Shown here one piece after another: positions 1 to 6,381 of a stretch of 6,381 bases of DNA. The stretch's first letter is position 1. Each line of letters starts with the position of its first letter. The stretch is taken from the IMG/VR virus record IMGVR_UViG_2693429623_000004; one strand, 5' to 3'. The notes below the pieces were generated by a model. It saw only the letters and a list, made by a program, of their open reading frames with translations, was not told the origin of the DNA and did no database searches. The position numbers and the translations under genes are program-made. This DNA comes from a virus (Duplodnaviria; Heunggongvirae; Uroviricota; Caudoviricetes).

Positions 1-19
1 AAACCTCGGTTTACAGGAA
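1..19 (+). other. Serine DNA-invertase crossover site (gix/cix/pix/mix type), left half cut by window edge
   Basis: Bases 1-19 read AAACC-TC-GGTTTACAGGAA: partial left half-site, 2-bp core TC, full right half-site. The reverse complement TTCCTGTAAACCGAGGTTT matches the Mu gix 26-bp site as I recall it (from memory, not searched). It lies in frame with the fibre ORF (NLGLQETVN). Confidence 0.75.
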
Positions 20-1030
20 ACGGTAAACAAGGCTGGTAACGCCGTGCAAAAAAATGGCGATACGTTGTCCGGTGGACTTACTTTTGAAAACGACTCAATC
101 CTTGCCTGGATTCGAAATACTGACTGGGCAAAGATTGGGTTTAAAAATAATTCGGATGCAGACACCGATTCCTACATGTGGTTTGAAACAGGCAACAACG
201 GCAATGAATATTTCAAATGGAGACACCGCATCATTGGCACCCGGCCTAAAGACCTGATGAATCTTAAATGGAATGCTTTGTCTGTTCTTGTTGAAGCCCT
301 TTTCAGCAGTGAAGTGAAAATATCGACAGTCAATGCACTGAGGATATTTAATTCATCTTTTGGTGCCATTTTTCGTCGTTCTGAAGAATGCCTGCATATC
401 ATCCCTACACGAGAGAATGAAGGGGAAAATGGTAATATAGGGCCACTACGCCCCTTTACGCTTAATCTCAGAACTGGCCGGATAAGCATGGGGCATGGTC
501 TTGATGTTACAGGGGATATATTTGCAAACCGTTTTGCAATTAACAGTAGTACCGGCATGTGGATTCATATGCGTGACCAGAATGTTATTTTGGGACGTAA
601 TGCGGTATCCACTGATGGTGCTCAGGCTTTGCTCCGTCAGGACCATGCCGACCGCAAATTTATGATTGGCGGTCTGGGAAATAAGCAATTTGGCATCTAC
701 ATGATTAATAACTCAAGGACAGCCAATGGCACCGATGGTCAGGCGTACATGGATAATAACGGGAACTGGCTTTGCGGCTCGCAAGTTATTCCCGGCAACT
801 ATGGCAATTTTGATTCCAGATATGTGAAAGATGTTCGACTTGGTTCACAGCAATATTATGGAGTGAACAACTGGCAAACATGGAATTTTCAGTGCCCGTC
901 AGGCTATGTACTGACGGGGATTAACGTACAGGATACCGGAAAAAACTCTGCCGATAATATTGCAGGCGTTCATTACAGGCCAGTGCAAAAGTATATAAAT
1001 GGCACTTGGTATAATGTGGCGAGTATTTAA
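2..1030 (+). CDS. Tail-fibre protein, variable C-terminal region (cassette A); 5' partial, constant part upstream of window
   Basis: Frame is open from base 2 through the crossover site ([25 protein letters not shown]...); the ORF track starts it at 44, which is a GTG. Stop TAA at 1028-1030. The C-terminus ...GYVLTGIN...[13 protein letters not shown] recurs as a motif in the other cassettes and is followed directly by a tfa gene, the typical fibre-chaperone arrangement. Confidence 0.85.
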
Positions 1031-1031
1031 T

Positions 1032-1559
1032 ATGATGCACTTAAAGAACATAAAAGCAGGTAATGCTAAAACAGTGGAGCAGTATGAGTTAACAAAGAAG
1101 CACGGAGTCATCTGGCTTTACTCTGAGGACGGAAAAAACTGGTATGAGGAAGTGAAGAACTTTCAGCCAGACACAATAAAGATTGTTTACGATGCAAATA
1201 ATATTATTGTCGCCATCACCAAAGATGCCTCCACGCTTAACCCTGAAGGTTATAGCGTCGTTGAGGTTCCTGATATTACAGCTAATCGTCGTGCTGATGA
1301 TTCCGGTAAGTGGATGTTTAAGGACGGAGCTGTGGTTAAACGGATTTATACGGCTGACGAACAGCAACAACAGGCCGAATCACAAAAGGCCGCATTGCTT
1401 TCCGAAGCTGAATCAGTCATCCAGCCGCTGGAACGCGCTGTCAGGCTGAATATGGCGACGGACGAGGAACGCACACGACTGGAAGCATGGGAACGCTACA
1501 GTGTTCTGGTCAGCCGTGTGGATACGGCAAAGCCAGAATGGCCACAAAAGCCTGAGTAA
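1032..1559 (+). CDS. tfa: Tail-fibre assembly chaperone (Tfa family, lambda Tfa / Mu U / e14 TfaE-like), copy 1
   Basis: ATG at 1032 sits 1 nt after the fibre stop (TAATATGATG). The product [11 protein letters not shown]...EWPQKPE is about 175 aa and paralogous to three other ORFs in the window. The ORF-track start at 999 is an upstream in-frame extension that overlaps the fibre. Confidence 0.9.
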
Positions 1560-1575
1560 AAATTAAGGCCCGATA
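1364..1575. repeat. Direct repeat, copy 1 (3' end of tfa1 plus tail through half of the terminator hairpin)
   Basis: Matches 2389-2600 at offset 1025 with only a handful of mismatches by eye (e.g. ggcaaagccagaatgg vs ggcaaatcctgaatgg). Confidence 0.85.
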
Positions 1576-2055
1576 NATCTTTATAAAGATATTGAATCTA
1601 ATGGCAGCAATTTTAGATTAAAAAGTAATTACCGCCACCACATTACATTCGCCAACGAAGACGGAAGAATTCGTATGTTTTTGTGGAAAGATAACGGTGG
1701 TGATGGTGTTCATATTAATAACGGTTCAGATGGTGGTGGTGATTTCATTTTTAAAACAGATGGGGGATTTGCGCTGGGAAGTGGTGCGCAAGTTGCGTCT
1801 AGTGGCGATATTTATGGTTCAGTGTGGGAAAACAACTGGTTAAGCACATGGCTGCATAATCATGTCGTTCGGGATATTCGTCTTGGCAGCATTGAATATA
1901 AAAACGTATGGCGCGACTACGGCTTTGGCGATGCGTCAGGTTATGTTTTAACAGCCGCAATTAACAGCAATGCGGATGATATTGTCGACACTGTTGCCAG
2001 AAGGCCAATTCAGAAATTGATTGGGGGAATATGGTACAACGTGGGGAGTGTTTAA
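1567..2055 (+). CDS. Tail-fibre C-terminal cassette B, 5'-truncated and without a crossover site; possibly silent
   Basis: Frame is open from 1567, immediately after an in-frame TAA at 1564-1566, and reads [45 protein letters not shown]...[38 protein letters not shown]. First in-frame ATG is at 1675 (the ORF-track start). Stop TAA at 2053-2055. No AAACC-NN-GGTTT site lies upstream. Confidence 0.7.
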
Positions 2056-2056
2056 G

Positions 2057-2584
2057 ATGATGCACCTGAAAAATATTAAGGCCGGGAATCCGAAAACACC
2101 GGAACAATACCAGCTAACTAAAAAAGCGGGCGTGGTATGGCTCTTTTGCGAAGATGGCAAAAACTGGTATGAGGAACAAAAGAATTTTCAGCCAGACACC
2201 ATAAAAATTGCTTACGATGAGAACAACATCATCGTTGCTGTCAGTAAAGACGTTTCAACTATTAATCCTGAAGGGCTAAGCATAGTTGAAGTTCCTGATA
2301 TTACGGCAAATCGTCACGCAGACAATAACGGAAAATGGATGTTTCTGGATGGTAAAGTAGTAAAGAGGGAATATACAGAACAGGAACTGCAACAACAGGC
2401 CGAATCACAAAAGGCCGCATTGCTTTCCGAAGCTGAATCAGTCATCCAGCCGCTGGAACGCGCTGTCAGGCTGAATATGGCGACGGACGAGGAACGCACA
2501 CGACTGGAAGCATGGGAACGCTACAGTGTTCTGGTCAGCCGTGTGGATACGGCAAATCCTGAATGGCCACAAAAGCCTGAATAA
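2057..2584 (+). CDS. tfa: Tail-fibre assembly chaperone (Tfa family), copy 2
   Basis: ATGATG at 2057 follows the cassette B stop by 1 nt. Product [23 protein letters not shown]...EWPQKPE. The ORF-track start at 2021 is an upstream extension. Confidence 0.9.
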
Positions 2585-2600
2585 AAATTAAGGCCCGATA
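2389..2600. repeat. Direct repeat, copy 2 (3' end of tfa2 plus tail)
   Basis: Near-identical to 1364-1575. Confidence 0.85.
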
Positions 2601-2609
2601 GCGGGCCTT
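2590..2609. terminator. Palindromic hairpin between convergent tfa2 and tfa3; likely intrinsic terminator
   Basis: AAGGCCCG-ATAG-CGGGCCTT is an 8-bp GC-rich stem with a 4-nt loop. On the - strand it is followed by AATTTTTAT. The A-run before it on the + strand gives a U-tract for transcripts reading in the - direction. Confidence 0.7.
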
Positions 2610-2960
2610 CTCTCATTCTGGTTGTTCGGGAAACGTTACTGGCAGGCTGGAGGTGTCTGTGGATTCAACCTTCTGCGCATAGAGCATCCACTCGGTTAAT
2701 TTTTGTTTATTCTCATCGGAAATGATGCCCAGCTGTAGCTGAGAGTCCCACAGCTGGGTTTTATCCCTGACGAGCTGCAGCAGGCTCTGCTTTTCATTTT
2801 CCGCTTGTTGCCTTTGCTCTTCCTCGGTATAAGTTCGCTTTATCACCGCACCATCTTTGAACATCCAGTTGCCCGAAATATCAGCCCGGCGATTTGCTGT
2901 AATATCAGGCAACTCAACGACACTTAAACCTTCTGGATTAATTGCTGATACATCCTTGTC
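2590..2960. repeat. Direct repeat, copy 1 (hairpin plus 3' part of tfa3)
   Basis: Matches 3580-3950 at constant offset 990 with scattered point mismatches by eye; similarity drops toward the 5' halves of the genes. Confidence 0.8.
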
Positions 2961-3146
2961 TATAGCAATAATTATTCCCTCAACTGTGTAAGCCAGTTTT
3001 ATTGTATCCTCCTGAAAGTTTTTTAATTCCTCATGCCAATTTTTTCCATCTTCGGACCATAACCAGATAACATCAAAATTCTTTGTTAGCTGGTATTGTT
3101 CAACGGTTTTTGGATTACCTGCGACAATGTTTTTTAAATGCTGCAT
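2613..3146 (-). CDS. tfa: Tail-fibre assembly chaperone (Tfa family), copy 3
   Basis: Product [30 protein letters not shown]...[11 protein letters not shown]. The N-terminal part is conserved with copies 1 and 2; the C-terminal part belongs to the second class shared with copy 4. ATG at 3146 sits 2 nt after the stop of fibre fragment C. Confidence 0.9.
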
Positions 3147-3148
3147 GA

Positions 3149-3568
3149 TTATACCTGCGATACGTTATACCATGTTCCGTTAATTAACTTTTGTATTGGT
3201 CTGAATACTGCCGGATCATCACCATCGACTTCACCGATAATACCAAGCCCCGTGATTACATGGCCTGATTTTTCATACATCACGCCTTTCTTCATGGTCT
3301 AAACAACTCGTGTGCCAAGTCTGACATCTCTCACATAGCGGGAATCAAAGTTACCGTAATCCGAGGGATTAACACGTCCCGTAATATTTATGGTTTTATT
3401 ACTTTGAATGCTTCCGGAGACAAAGCGCATAACATGGACGTTATTAGCATAAACATCCAGATTACCATCGCCTTTTTGTTTAAAGCCCGTGTCATTATCA
3501 CCCAATACAATCGAATTACCGCCAAGAGCACTGGATGTTCCGATACCCAGTGCACCAACATCTCCTGC
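3149..3568 (-). pseudogene. Tail-fibre C-terminal cassette C: 5'-truncated, no crossover site, interrupted by an in-frame TAG
   Basis: The - strand reads [89 protein letters not shown], then TAG (3299-3301), then in the same frame [49 protein letters not shown] and TAA (3149-3151). Region 3362-3568 duplicates 5176-5415 of cassette E apart from a 33-bp deletion. The 5' end runs into the N-run at 3569-3579. Confidence 0.7.
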
Positions 3569-3579
3569 NNNNNNNNNNN

Positions 3580-3599
3580 AAGGCCCGATATCGGGCCTT
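3580..3599. terminator. Second copy of the palindromic hairpin, downstream of tfa4 on the - strand
   Basis: AAGGCCCG-ATAT-CGGGCCTT. It is the same stem as 2590-2609 and is flanked on one side by the 11-nt N-run. Confidence 0.6.
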
Positions 3600-3950
3600 G
3601 TTTCATTCTGGTTGTTCGGGAAACGTTACTGGCAGGCTGGAGGTGTCTGTGGATTCGACCTTCTGCGCATAGAGCATCCACTCGGTTAATTTTTGTTTAT
3701 TCTCGTCGGAAATAATGCCCAGCCGTAGCTGTGAGTCCCATAGCTGGGTTTTATCCCTGACGAGCTGTAGCAGGCTTTGCTTTTCATTTTCCGCTTGTTG
3801 CCTCTGCTCTTCCCCGGTATAAGTTCGCTTTATCACTACGCCATCTTTGAACATCCATTTACCTGAAATATCAGCCCGGCGATTTGCTGTAATATCAGGA
3901 ACCTCAACGACGCTTGCGCCTTCCGGATTAATTGCTGAAACATCCTTTTC
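3580..3950. repeat. Direct repeat, copy 2 (hairpin plus 3' part of tfa4)
   Basis: Partner of 2590-2960. Confidence 0.8.
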
Positions 3951-4136
3951 AATACAAATAATAACGCCGTTGTGGTCATAGACCATTTTCAACGTATCAG
4001 GCTGAAAGTTCTTTTGTTCCTCATACCAGTTTTTCCCATCCTCTGTATAAAGCCATTTGATGTTAAATTGTTTCGTTAGCTGGTATTGCTCTTTTGTTTC
4101 AGGATTACCAGCAGAAATGTTTTTTAAGTGCATCAT
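3603..4136 (-). CDS. tfa: Tail-fibre assembly chaperone (Tfa family), copy 4
   Basis: Product [40 protein letters not shown]...[17 protein letters not shown] at 4136 sits 2 nt after the cassette D stop (TAA 4139-4141). Confidence 0.9.
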   Translation of the reverse strand: MMHLKNISAGNPETKEQYQLTKQFNIKWLYTEDGKNWYEEQKNFQPDTLKMVYDHNGVIICIEKDVSAINPEGASVVEVPDITANRRADISGKWMFKDGVVIKRTYTGEEQRQQAENEKQSLLQLVRDKTQLWDSQLRLGIISDENKQKLTEWMLYAQKVESTDTSSLPVTFPEQPE

Positions 4137-4138
4137 CG

Positions 4139-5090
4139 TTAAATACTCCCCGCGTTATACCACGTCCCATTAATGCAATACTGAATTGGCCTTGCCTGAG
4201 TTGTATCAATTAGTTCATCTCTGTTTGAGTTAACGGAACCGGTAACAACATAACCTGACCTGTCAGACCATCCGGGACCATTCCATGTCTGAACAGATAA
4301 CAGACCACCAAGGCGAATACCTGTAATAAACCTTGAGTTACATTCTGCCTGCGTATATGCACCAACATCTCCCGCAGAGGGTTTGCGGGTTGTGGTGTAA
4401 AACTCTGACCAGTCAGCTTCAAAGCCATAACCATCACGCGCTGAACGATAAAAAATACCGCCGTTCCTGTAATTCACGCGGAACTGTACAGCAGGGCAGC
4501 TCCCCGTATTCATATTGAAGTGGAGGATTAATGTCGATGCGCCACCAATGTTTGCGTTATAGACCCCGCTATTCCAGTTCCAGCCAACAGCTTTATCATT
4601 TCCGACAGTGCTTCCTGTTTGCCCTAAAGCAAATGCAGGTTGTTGATTTTTCGTGTTGTAGTCTCGTCGCCAGCCAGGAGCGTAAGCATCACCATGATTA
4701 ATATAAGTGAATTGAGCGTTAGTAATTCCGCCACCGCTGGACGTGCTCGGCGTGGTAACGCGTATGGTCATTGCGCCGCGAGTGCCAATAACTTCCACCA
4801 CAGCACCTGCAAGACAAATATTTCCGCAACCTGTATCTGTAATGACCTTATTATTTGCATAAGCCCATGAGCCTTTGCACATCCAGTAAGGATGGTTAAA
4901 TGCTCCCTGACTCTCCAGCCACGAAATAAATTGCGCGGTTGTCCAGACCTGACTATCGCCACCAATATTCAGCCATGAGCTATATGCGCGGCAGGCACCA
5001 ATATTTTTGGTGAAGGTATCTTTCCCCGGAATATCTGCGCCGTTCTGGTTTTTCTGTAATGCGCCAGAAGCCTGATTTACCGTTTCCTGT
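4139..5090 (-). CDS. Tail-fibre variable C-terminal region (cassette D), alternative to cassette A; 5' end runs into crossover site and N-run
   Basis: The ORF-track entry 4139..4882 stays open upstream to 5090 in the same frame: ...QETVNQASGALQKNQNGADIPGKDTFTKNIGACRAYSSWLNIGGDSQVWTTAQFISWLESQGAFNHPYWMCKGSWAYANN... It begins with the same QETVN encoded by site 1 and ends ...GYVVTGSVNSNRDELIDTTQARPIQYCINGTWYNAGSI. Confidence 0.85.
4357..4640. repeat. Diverged direct repeat, copy 1 (shared fibre module in cassette D)
   Basis: Aligns with about 5397-5680 in cassette E at roughly 80-85% identity by eye. It encodes AFALGxTGSTVxNDKAVGWNW...GSCPAxQFRxNYxNGGIFYRSARDGYGFEADWSEFYTT..RKPSAGDVGA. Confidence 0.7.
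5084..5090 (-). other. Crossover site, visible edge only (TTCCTGT...), remainder masked by N-run 5091-5175
   Basis: Bases 5071-5090 (CCTGATTTACCGTTTCCTGT) match the reverse complement of window bases 11-32 apart from a few substitutions; the remainder AAACC-GA-GGTTT... is predicted inside the Ns. Orientation is inverted relative to site 1. Confidence 0.65.
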
Positions 5091-5175
5091 NNNNNNNNNN
5101 NNNNNNNNNNNNNNNNNNNNNNNNNNNNNNNNNNNNNNNNNNNNNNNNNNNNNNNNNNNNNNNNNNNNNNNNNNN

Positions 5176-5888
5176 CGAGGGATTAACACGTCCCGTAATA
5201 TTTATGGTTTTATTACTTTGAATGCTTCCGGAGACAAAGCGCATAACATGGACGTTATTAGCATAAACATCCAGATTACCATCGCCTTTTTGTTTAAAGC
5301 CCGTGTCATTATCACCCAATACAATCGAATTACCGCCAAGAGCACTGGATGTTCCGATACCCAGTGCACCATTCAGTTGACCACCAGATAACGGCAGTGC
5401 ACCAACATCTCCTGCTGAAGGTTTTCTGGTGGTGTAAAATTCGGACCAGTCGGCTTCAAAACCATAACCATCACGGGCTGAACGATAAAAAATACCGCCA
5501 TTTTTATAATTAATCCGAAACTGAGCTGCAGGACAACTTCCTTCTCCCATATAAAAATGAATAATTAACGTTGATGCACCACTAATAGTTGCGTTATAGG
5601 CTCCGCTACTCCAGTTCCATCCAACTGCTTTATCATTCGCAACGGTGCTTCCTGTTTTCCCTAAGGCAAACGCACCAACATGACTTGCTTTTAATGTGAT
5701 ATCGGAGGAACCATCAAAAGCCACATTGCTTATTTTCCTGGCAGTTTTTAATTTTGCAGCTGTAGAAGCATTGCCGGATAGTTCACCAGAAAGGCCACCG
5801 CTGAATGTTTGTCGATTAGTCCAGGTATTCGCTGTACTGAGTAACGGTATTTTCTCCCCGCTTGTGCCGAGTTCTCGTAAACCGAGGT
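5176..5888 (-). CDS. Tail-fibre variable region (cassette E), third alternative; both ends in N-runs
   Basis: The - strand reads LGLRELGTSGEKIPLLSTANTWTNRQTFSGG...AFALGKTGSTVANDKAVGWNW...GYGFEADWSEFYTTRKPSAGDVGALPLSGGQLNGALGIGTSS...NKTINITGRVNPS. The 5' LGL is encoded by the crossover site at 5872-5888. The central block is shared with cassette D. Confidence 0.8.
5397..5680. repeat. Diverged direct repeat, copy 2 (shared fibre module in cassette E)
   Basis: Partner of 4357-4640. Confidence 0.7.
5872..5888 (-). other. Crossover site: TTCTCGTAAACC-GA-GGT then Ns
   Basis: A full left half-site TTCTCGTAAACC, core GA and the start of the right half-site are visible before the N-run. Orientation is the same as the 5084 site and inverted relative to site 1. 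It lies in frame with cassette E. Confidence 0.7.
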
Positions 5889-6300
5889 NNNNNNNNNNNN
5901 NNNNNNNNNNNNNNNNNNNNNNNNNNNNNNNNNNNNNNNNNNNNNNNNNNNNNNNNNNNNNNNNNNNNNNNNNNNNNNNNNNNNNNNNNNNNNNNNNNNN
6001 NNNNNNNNNNNNNNNNNNNNNNNNNNNNNNNNNNNNNNNNNNNNNNNNNNNNNNNNNNNNNNNNNNNNNNNNNNNNNNNNNNNNNNNNNNNNNNNNNNNN
6101 NNNNNNNNNNNNNNNNNNNNNNNNNNNNNNNNNNNNNNNNNNNNNNNNNNNNNNNNNNNNNNNNNNNNNNNNNNNNNNNNNNNNNNNNNNNNNNNNNNNN
6201 NNNNNNNNNNNNNNNNNNNNNNNNNNNNNNNNNNNNNNNNNNNNNNNNNNNNNNNNNNNNNNNNNNNNNNNNNNNNNNNNNNNNNNNNNNNNNNNNNNNN

Positions 6301-6381
6301 GTCACTGTATGCGGCATCTTGTCGTGCTGGTGGTGGAAGCCTAGAAAAAGTATCGGGTGTTGCTGAACCGTGTTGATACAT
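6301..6381 (-). CDS. Partial ORF of unknown identity reaching the right window edge
   Basis: Only 27 codons are visible (MYQHGSATPDTFSRLPPPARQDAAYSD) before the 412-nt N-run. The ATG at the window edge may be coincidental and the frame may continue beyond the window. Its relation to the fibre cassettes cannot be decided. Confidence 0.2.

Follow-up and report, generated by a model that had tools for sequence, protein, structure and literature searches.

Four genes for tail fibre assembly proteins (Tfa) follow one another in a 6,381-nt stretch of viral DNA (the window, meaning that whole stretch), two on each strand, and the 3′ end of each is repeated in the other gene on its strand. This locus raises the question of whether it is a natural array of four tail-fibre cassettes, and why the 3′ ends of the genes should be so alike when the fibre tips that they accompany differ. 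The explanation that we favor, with a probability of about 0.9, combines a chimeric scaffold of two Mu-type invertible segments with a two-domain Tfa protein whose core is conserved throughout the family.

Two classes of tfa genes and their 3′ repeats

The window contains four Caudo_TAP/Tfa ORFs. Tfa1 (1032–1559, plus strand) is a U-class tail fibre assembly protein and the orthologue of Mu U, with all 175 residues (1–175) aligned to 5YVQ_B (Mu U; E=5.2e-102). Tfa2 (2057–2584, plus strand) belongs to the same class with an N-domain subtype unlike that of Tfa1. Tfa3 (2613–3146, minus strand) and Tfa4 (3603–4136, minus strand) are U′-class proteins; the N-domain subtype of the former is that found in NCTC86, and the latter shows 100% nucleotide identity to SfMu U′. 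The exact sequences of Tfa1 and Tfa2 carry PF02413, as do their adjacent 177-aa partners. Whole-protein identity to Tfa1 is 85% for Tfa2 and 58% for both Tfa3 and Tfa4, and the U-class proteins end in (K/N)PEWPQKPE, whereas the U′ class has a different ending. A shared N-terminal region followed by two classes of C-terminus, as the preliminary description had it, was confirmed with its positions, and the two classes are the known U and U′ genes of Mu/P1-type invertible tail-fibre segments.

Each tfa starts 2–3 nt past a tip ORF that ends in ...RPIQ..ING.WYN... (4/4). Sv (tip1; 1–1030, plus strand) is the variable C-terminal part of a Mu S-type tail fibre (E=1.8e-132 to PDB 5YVQ_A, Mu tail fiber protein S) and is 100% identical to the loci L013/L015/L017. 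Tip2 (1577–2055, plus strand) is a 3′ fragment of a different fibre gene, 99.2% identical to pHN68-3, in which the fibre sequence extends further upstream; the tip2 sequence thus starts within a longer gene. Tip3 (3149–3568, minus strand) carries an in-frame TAG at 3299–3301, and its last 21 nt skip 33 nt relative to the closed genomes, in which tip3 is likewise split, into ORFs of 48 aa and 203 aa. S′v (tip4; 4139–5090, minus strand) is the variable part of an alternative fibre and is 100% identical to L013/L017.

The two plus-strand copies of the U-class repeat (1364–1575, covering the C-domain of Tfa1 and half of a terminator, and 2389–2600 for Tfa2) differ by 3 mismatches in 212 nt and share a 168-nt perfect run. 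The two minus-strand copies of the U′-class repeat (2590–2960 for Tfa3 and 3580–3950 for Tfa4) are ~93% identical over ~370 nt. The 5′ parts of the tfa genes are ~71–77% identical (56–82% per 45-nt block), and the last 125 residues of the fibre tips reach 26–41% protein identity, so the claimed near-identity of 3′ ends within a class despite differing tips was borne out. Synonymous differences fall from 0.895 in the N-part to 0.047 in the C-part for Tfa1/Tfa2, and from 0.529 to 0.187 for Tfa3/Tfa4. The excess of 3′ identity over the N-part is far beyond chance.

Two prophage loci in one scaffold

Four N runs, at 1576 (a single N), 3569–3579 (11 N), 5091–5175 (85 N), and 5889–6300 (412 N), divide the window into five blocks, and all of them fall exactly on block boundaries, between two different genomic loci. 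Block A (1–1575), from a P2-like prophage, holds Sv and Tfa1 and ends in the middle of a 20-nt palindrome. Block B, from a lambdoid prophage, starts at a 14-nt palindrome (ATCTTTATAAAGAT) and runs from tip2 to tip3, with a bidirectional terminator hairpin (AAGGCCCGATAGCGGGCCTT; 2590–2609) between its convergent tfa genes; in D108, rho-independent terminators are annotated at the equivalent spot. Block C (3580–5090) holds Tfa4 and S′v and begins with a perfect 20-nt palindromic terminator (AAGGCCCGATATCGGGCCTT; 3580–3599), the first 11 nt of the block repeating the end of block A. Block D (5176–5888, minus strand) belongs to the lambdoid locus and contains the upstream part of its tip3 variable region. 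Block E (6301–6381, plus strand) consists of 81 nt with 100% identity to 8281–8361 of the lambdoid locus L006, beyond a truncated invertase remnant; no fibre gene starts here.

Closed genomes arrange these blocks differently. Blocks A and C are contiguous and 100% identical in L013, L017 (S. sonnei 53G, HE616528.1), and L018, where they overlap by 11 nt and position 1575 runs straight into block C. Blocks B, D, and E are collinear in L006 (5518–7501, 7306–8018, and 8281–8361, respectively), with B (99.85%) and D at ~100% identity. Blocks B and D overlap there by 196 nt (3362–3557 = 5176–5371); thus, the apparent 100% direct repeat in the window is a single sequence written twice. The 412-N gap corresponds to a real spacing of 262 nt (L006 8019–8280), which contains the remainder of the crossover site and a truncated pin-like invertase gene, with a 60-aa Resolvase fragment at L006 8082–8264. 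The P2-like (A + C) and degraded lambdoid (B + D + E) prophage loci lie ~550 kb apart in closed Shigella sonnei genomes, and a single closed chromosome, CP032523.1, has the pair at 3.72 Mb and 4.27 Mb.

From the closed relatives and the positions of the N runs, we infer a misjoin. The window is very probably a short-read scaffold of five contigs, with N gaps of 1, 11, 85, and 412 nt, in which pieces of two distinct invertible tail-fibre segments of the Din-invertase type, both from a Shigella sonnei-like genome, alternate. One of them, the complete Sv-U / U′-S′v segment of the P2-like prophage, consists of blocks A + C; the other, B + D + E, is the equivalent segment of the degraded lambdoid prophage near trpA. 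Four tfa genes thus appear in a row because the draft scaffold stitched two prophage loci together. In draft assemblies, the exact Tfa2 protein lies mostly on 2–5 kb contigs (2,735/4,270 index blocks), suggesting that this region routinely fragments. As a caution, what looks like a four-cassette array with strand-specific repeats can be two ordinary Mu-type segments threaded together via shared repeats, and the give-away of such a misjoin is an N run wherever the best-matching source changes. One point counts against this reading: an 11-nt contig overlap and contig ends at 14–20-nt palindromes are unlike the usual k-mer behavior of common assemblers. In addition, a 434-aa minus-strand ORF (5077–6381, 'MYQHGSATPDTF...') was considered as the constant part of a fibre and discarded as an artefact of N translated as X, block E mapping beyond the invertase remnant.

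Of crossover sites, the window holds only halves, at contig ends. A Din-family (gix/cix-like) half site, AAACCTCGGTTTACAGGAA, lies at the left end of block A (1–19, plus strand), where it matches TTATCCAAAACCTCGGTTTACAGGAA of Mu and TTATCTAAAACCTCGGTTTACAGGAA of L013 and was also recovered by pattern search; a second (...TTTCCTGT; 5083–5090) lies at the end of S′v, where L017 reads TTCCTGTAAACCGAGGTTTTAGATAA; and a third (TTCTCGTAAACCGAGGT; 5872–5888) ends block D. In Mu and in L017, the closed-genome locus with identical sequence, full inverted 26-bp crossover sites flank the segment. The invertase lies outside the window: a 195-aa Resolvase+HTH_7 gene adjoins the A + C locus in L013–L018, and at the B + D locus only the truncated 60-aa fragment does. 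Both orientations are seen at each locus. In the P2-like one, L014/L017 have Sv attached to the constant part and L013/L016 have it detached; in the lambdoid one, L006 has the tip2 side joined and L012 the tip3 side, with block E mapping opposite. Taken over the closed-genome loci, inverted sites, a serine invertase, and both orientations, which mark a Din-family invertible segment, were thus all found. A site-like sequence at 4328–4341 has 2 core mismatches, with 0.53 hits expected by chance, and was treated as a chance match. In each real segment, two fibre-tip cassettes face each other in the standard Mu G / P1 C layout, each followed by its own tfa, with one U and one U′ gene converging on a shared palindromic terminator. 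With two loci interleaved, the 'strand-specific' classes of the preliminary description keep only this sense, namely one U and one U′ tfa per segment, convergent on a palindromic terminator; a further link to strand and a single four-gene locus were not confirmed.

We also weighed a real four-cassette array of the p15B Min kind, in which block B, a second U-U′ core with two truncated tips, would have been inserted in the central terminator of the P2-like segment. In favor of it, scaffolding put B between A and C and estimated the gaps at just 1 and 11 nt, and multi-cassette inversion systems do exist, p15B Min being mentioned in PMC6906374. However, every junction carries an N run, closed genomes have A next to C at 100% identity with the 11-nt overlap, and B overlaps D by 196 nt there, yet C separates B and D in the window. 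Pattern search of the window gave no match for a crossover site beside tip2 or tip3, and without such a site these tips could never be joined to a constant part. The A/B junction had 0 matches in 185,579 representative genomes and IMG/VR, and the B/C junction pattern had 0 matches in the 185,579 representative genomes, collections from which the source may be absent or in which it may be masked. Among the best matches listed from 5,426 complete E. coli genomes, all align as two separate pieces and lack the junctions. A real array therefore has almost no probability in our estimate. A nested insertion with an 11-bp target duplication (AAGGCCCGATA) was ruled out by the A–C contiguity and the B–D overlap in closed genomes. 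The chimeric scaffold also removes the proposal that the repeats serve as substrates for RecA-mediated deletion or duplication of cassettes, as the array does not exist and the copies lie in two prophages ~550 kb apart.

Exchange of fibre tips around a conserved core

The excess of 3′ identity is family-wide (90–100% at the nucleotide level in all pairs) and not peculiar to these copies. We compared the genes by identity matrices, synonymous differences with triplet tests, and a segment-by-segment profile of block B. The N-part of Tfa2 is 99.4% identical to pHN68-3 and its C-part only 91.4%, while block B from the Tfa2 C-part onward is 98–100% identical to NCTC86 (Fisher p about 1e-16). The mosaic breakpoint lies at the Tfa domain boundary, at ~codon 115, and recombination at the N/C boundary is clear. 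The histories of the N- and C-parts are incongruent (Fisher p about 1e-16); congruent trees and a lack of 3′ excess were not found, and so the core idea of the preliminary description survives. Its surviving content is textbook Mu/P1 biology and was already known.

All four pairings of the two U N-types and the two U′ N-types occur naturally around the same core. On these alignments, a fibre tip and its Tfa N-domain are exchanged as one unit, and the C-domain and terminator form the conserved core around which this takes place. For Mu Tfa, PMC9608196, citing North 2019, describes a non-conserved N-domain that binds the fibre tip and a conserved C-terminal helical domain proposed to drive trimerisation; the same paper states that the C-domain is not resolved in 5YVQ, which makes the oligomerisation role a proposal. 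Likewise, the N-domain here would bind the fibre tip and be inherited together with it, and the C-terminal helical domain may perform a tip-independent job, a function proposed in the literature. Together with the terminator, that domain makes up the core, which shows 90–100% DNA identity across Mu, D108, SfMu, P1, P7, P88, and prophages. Such near-identity would allow homologous recombination inside the core, presumably acting as the joint, to re-assort cassettes of tip and Tfa N-domain. The suggestion of a role for the C-terminal part that does not depend on a specific tip thus gains support from the four N-type combinations around one core and from the published two-domain model. Because the natural breakpoint lies at ~codon 115 of tfa, swapping tip-plus-chaperone modules there could be of use in engineering phage host range.

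The near-identity could stem mainly from recent gene conversion between the copies of the two prophages that share this genome; in favor of it are the 168-nt perfect run of Tfa1/Tfa2, their synonymous difference of 0.047 in the C-part against 0.895 in the N-part, and the presence of both loci on one chromosome. However, the C-part of Tfa2 is no more distant from P1, P7, and NCTC86 (98.9%) than from co-resident Tfa1 (98.4%), Tfa3 is 98.5% identical to NCTC86 and Tfa4 100% to SfMu in this part but 95.6% to each other, and the 3′ ends are equally conserved between phages that were never co-resident in this genome. We consider conversion of this local kind improbable. The original proposal of gene conversion between same-strand copies holds only broadly: recombination does occur at the N/C boundary, but it extends across the family and is not a local event.

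A DNA- or RNA-level function of the 3′ ends, such as transcript stability or termination of convergent operons, might also constrain synonymous sites. Conservation continues through the stop codons into the shared palindromic terminator, and the synonymous difference of the U-class C-part goes down to 0.047–0.09 among many phages. Other within-class pairs, however, differ by 0.23–0.35 at synonymous and by ≤0.04 at non-synonymous sites, the signature of protein-level selection with episodic exchange, and we regard such a function as very improbable. In the U′ class, where the C-part synonymous difference is still 0.19–0.35, protein-level constraint, not recent exchange, may lie behind most of the identity.

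A further reading concerns why the C-part exists in two versions. U and U′ share ~32% protein identity and 31–49% DNA identity, and each version is 90–100% identical across phages. In every segment of the Mu/P1 type, the center might be kept as two deliberately different DNA versions of one homologous C-domain, a reading that we find doubtful. If true, the divergence would avoid a ~400-bp near-perfect palindrome, unstable in enterobacteria, which identical convergent C-parts ~30 bp apart would form, and each version would offer a strand-specific joint for homologous recombination, through which left and right cassettes are swapped independently. No same-class convergent pair was found in about 70 segments, all of them close relatives, for which shared ancestry accounts equally well.

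Comparison with known invertible segments

The Mu G segment (Sc, gix, Sv-U / U′-S′v, gix, gin) and the P1/P7 C segment (cin) have the same gene order, the same crossover-site sequence, the same U and U′ proteins, and the same convergence on a central terminator as the loci described here. Positions 1–5090 of the window align for 76–83% of their length, at 87–92% identity, to Mu, D108, SfMu, P1, P7, and P88, but to only ~3.07 kb in each of them. Unlike those of Mu and P1, the segments here lie in a P2-like prophage and a degraded lambdoid prophage, and the lambdoid copy differs further by a truncated invertase, an in-frame stop in one tip, and an IS-truncated tip2 in some strains. Every reference segment with both genes intact has one U and one U′ gene, and their convergence on a palindromic terminator is common to Mu, D108, SfMu, P1, and P88.

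A survey of 80 IMG/VR loci, covering close relatives of Tfa1 (at least 91% identity) and therefore saying nothing on the age of the U/U′ split, found a clean U/U′ pair in 59 and a same-class pair in none. The IMG/VR locus L054, with three Tfa genes, was considered as a natural multi-cassette array and rejected: it is such a pair with a third Tfa behind a single N, located at 3032 exactly where the homology to block D stops, and is probably another scaffold join.

The likeness to p15B Min and to shufflons, with more than two fibre cassettes in both orientations, is superficial. Min has several crossover sites in one contiguous region, whereas the extra cassettes here lack sites and belong to another locus; a contiguous segment of more than two cassettes, each with a site in front, was not found. 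The two-domain model of TfaMu (PDB 5YVQ), in which the N-domain accompanies the tip and a conserved C-domain is independent of it, does not differ in substance from what we describe, and our analysis adds DNA-level evidence for the tip and N-domain as a unit. Haggard-Ljungquist in 1992 and Sandmeier in 1992–94 reportedly described mosaic, modular evolution of tail-fibre genes among unrelated phages. The present loci agree with that picture without difference, as P2-like, Mu-like, P1-like, and lambdoid backgrounds share the same cassettes, which are also present in a phage-plasmid.

Composition of the four-gene stretch

ORF listing and translation place four tail fibre assembly (chaperone) genes in the window, Tfa1 (1032-1559, +), Tfa2 (2057-2584, +), Tfa3 (2613-3146, -) and Tfa4 (3603-4136, -), and all four are preceded at 2-3 nt by a fibre-tip ORF (tip1-tip4) ending ...RPIQ..ING.WYN.... 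N runs lie at 1576 (1 nt), 3569-3579 (11 nt), 5091-5175 (85 nt) and 5889-6300 (412 nt), and local blastn resolved the window into five blocks with boundaries exactly at these runs. A P2-like prophage in closed genomes (L013, L018 and L017, the last being S. sonnei 53G, HE616528.1) matches blocks A (1-1575) and C (3580-5090) at 100% identity and has them directly adjoining, with an 11-nt overlap, AAGGCCCGATA, that is half of a 20-nt palindromic terminator. A degraded lambdoid prophage near trpA (L005-L012) matches blocks B (1577-3568), D (5176-5888) and E (6301-6381) at 99.85-100% and carries them in the order B, D, E. Blocks B and D overlap there by 196 nt; thus, the "100% direct repeat" 3362-3557 / 5176-5371 is a single sequence present twice. 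Both loci occur on one closed chromosome, CP032523.1, at 3.72 Mb and 4.27 Mb, and neither the A|B nor the B|C junction had a match elsewhere in the collections searched. In megablast searches of phages, plasmids and E. coli genomes, Mu, D108, SfMu, P1, P7 and P88 covered ~75-83% of positions 1-5090 with only ~3.07 kb of each subject, because a normal segment comprises two cassettes, not four. Contig ends 1, 5090 and 5888 lie in crossover sites, end 1575 is the stop of the A/B-internal repeat, and ends also fall at palindromes; within the window, neither tip2 nor tip3 has a crossover site. The exact Tfa2 protein is found in draft assemblies mostly on 2-5 kb contigs, so the region routinely shatters in such assemblies. 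These sequence comparisons indicate that the four-Tfa array is very probably (about 0.9) a scaffolding artefact. The orientation of block B relative to the rest of the scaffold carries no biological information. RecA-mediated deletion or duplication of cassettes, proposed in the preliminary description, presupposes this probably artefactual array and falls away, as closed genomes hold two separate loci.

Several details of the contig ends were also observed. Breaks at 1565-1577, 2590-2609 and 3580-3599 fall at or within perfect palindromes, i.e., the 20-nt terminator AAGGCCCGATATCGGGCCTT and the 14-nt ATCTTTATAAAGAT. The A/C overlap of only 11 nt is at odds with the k-1 overlap that common de Bruijn assemblers usually produce. 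At the end of block B, the final 21 nt (3548-3568 vs 5362-5415) skip 33 nt found in block D and the closed genomes, equal to 11 codons (LPLSGGQLNGA); the skip falls between two occurrences of a 10-nt repeat, CAGTGCACCA, and reflects either an assembly slip at the contig end or a genuine in-frame deletion variant. For the 5889-6300 gap, the scaffolder's estimate of 412 N exceeds the true distance of 262 nt in closed genomes; concealed inside the gap are a crossover site's second half and the 5′ end of a truncated pin-like invertase. An in-frame TAG at 3299-3301 (- strand) splits tip3 into a part ending ...RLGTRVV and a 48-aa tail (MKKGVMYEK...WYNVSQV). Since the same split is called as 203-aa and 48-aa ORFs in closed genomes L007, L009 and L012, the TAG is not a sequencing error but either a genuine pseudogene lesion or a site of read-through. 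The IMG/VR viral contig L054 (IMGVR_UViG_2693429508_000014) carries blocks B and D naturally contiguous, a single N at 3032 and then an unrelated U-type tfa; its apparent three-Tfa array probably reflects a similar scaffold misjoin in this database record.

Architecture, inversion and decay of the two segments

Tfa1 is an orthologue of Mu U (PDB 5YVQ_B, E=5e-102), and tip1 is Mu S (5YVQ_A). Among tfa genes extracted from Mu, D108, SfMu, P1, P88, two E. coli prophages, plasmid pHN68-3 and Shigella loci, one U and one U′ (ending TEWML(Y/F)...) converge on a terminator wherever both genes are intact; in P7 the second gene is annotated as split, and in L015 an insertion sequence cuts U′. A clean U/U′ pair was present in 59 of 80 IMG/VR loci, L054 has the pair plus a third Tfa past the N join, the rest are single or truncated, and a same-class pair occurred in none of the 80. 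Because this convergent pairing recurs across reference segments and IMG/VR loci, the "strand-specific classes" described earlier are the ordinary Mu G / P1 C-type segment architecture, seen twice.

Both real segments behave as invertible elements, each with alternative orientations among closed genomes. The P2-like segment has full inverted crossover sites at its flanks and an adjoining 195-aa serine invertase. For the lambdoid segment, L006 has the tip2 side joined to a 918-aa phage_tail_N fibre, and L012 has the tip3 side joined to one of 875 aa. The invertase belonging to this segment is reduced to a truncated fragment of 60 aa. The P2-like prophage has an intact 195-aa invertase, and the crossover sites of the two prophages are nearly identical (TTCTCGTAAACCGAGGTTTTAGATAA in the lambdoid one). 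The coexistence of both orientations with these features suggests that the lambdoid segment is inverted in trans by the P2-like prophage's enzyme. Both fibre segments are decaying in an IS-rich lineage. IS3-family elements truncate tip2 in L005 and L007-L011 (upstream of Tfa2, locus ~4490-5646), and window homology in these genomes begins at 1767, not 1574; another (L015, 6731-7887) interrupts U′ of the P2-like prophage in CP032523.1.

Similarity of the tfa 3′ ends

DNA alignment of the four genes and register plots bear out the preliminary description of two C-terminal classes with near-identical 3′ ends and differing tips. Positions 1364-1575 and 2389-2600 show 3 mismatches in 212 positions, with a 168-nt perfect run, and 2590-~2960 is ~93% identical to 3580-~3950, whereas the 5′ parts share 56-82% per 45-nt block and the four tips only 26-41% over their last 125 residues. 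The 3′ repeats are real and well past chance expectation. From the 5′ portion (N-part) to the 3′ portion (C-part), synonymous difference falls from 0.895 to 0.047 for Tfa1/Tfa2 and from 0.529 to 0.187 for Tfa3/Tfa4. The two classes are homologous yet distant (20 of the last 63 columns are invariant; DNA identity of 29-49% per block). Selection against a long palindrome at the centre might conceivably maintain their divergence at the DNA level, an only mildly new thought, and common descent accounts equally well for this difference.

Co-resident copies are not special in their 3′ identity. In identity matrices, C-parts are 90-100% identical in every within-class pair regardless of phage, and N-part subtypes share 71-77%. 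The Tfa2 C-part shares 98.9% with P1, P7 and NCTC86 vs 98.4% with Tfa1; the best matches of Tfa3 and Tfa4 are NCTC86 (98.5%) and SfMu (100%), respectively, vs 95.6% between the two. Of the gene conversion proposed earlier, recombination in general holds, but local conversion between copies of one array does not, as C-parts are at least as close to copies in other genomes. In the U′ class, C-part synonymous difference still reaches 0.19-0.35 against ~0.006 non-synonymous, so protein-level constraint may be enough to explain the identity.

Mosaicism and the two-domain model

N-part and C-part histories are incongruent and the 3′ excess is present, the reverse of congruent trees with no such excess. 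Along block B, identity to pHN68-3 vs NCTC86 runs from 99.2% vs 41.3% (tip2) and 99.4% vs 71.9% (Tfa2 N-part), through about 91.3% vs 98.9% (Tfa2 C-part), 96.4% vs 100.0% (terminator) and 92.6% vs 98.5% (Tfa3 C-part), to 76.7% vs 99.7% (Tfa3 N-part) and 45.5% vs 98.3% (tip3). Informative sites in the triplet Tfa2 / pHN68-3 / P1 divide 98:1 in the N-part and 2:16 in the C-part (Fisher p ~1e-16). All four combinations of two U N-types with two U′ N-types exist, in the S. sonnei P2-like prophage (types 1 + 4), the S. sonnei lambdoid prophage (2 + 3), NCTC86 (1 + 3) and pHN68-3 (2 + 4), so recombination occurs in the central core. We read the tip plus the Tfa N-domain as the mobile cassette, and the C-domain and terminator as a generic core doubling as a homologous crossover point; we infer that this core acts as a recombination joint.

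As summarised in PMC9608196, North et al. (2019) describe a variable Tfa N-domain that binds the fibre tip and a conserved C-terminal helical domain with a proposed tip-independent role in trimerisation. A tip-independent role of the C-terminus, raised in the sequence-only reading, is therefore upheld and, according to that summary, already published. Mu/P1 U and U′, modular Tfa and mosaic fibre genes are likewise already known. The N/C mosaicism seen here agrees with the published two-domain model, and in both Shigella segments, as in Mu G and P1 C-type segments, U and U′ converge on a terminator.
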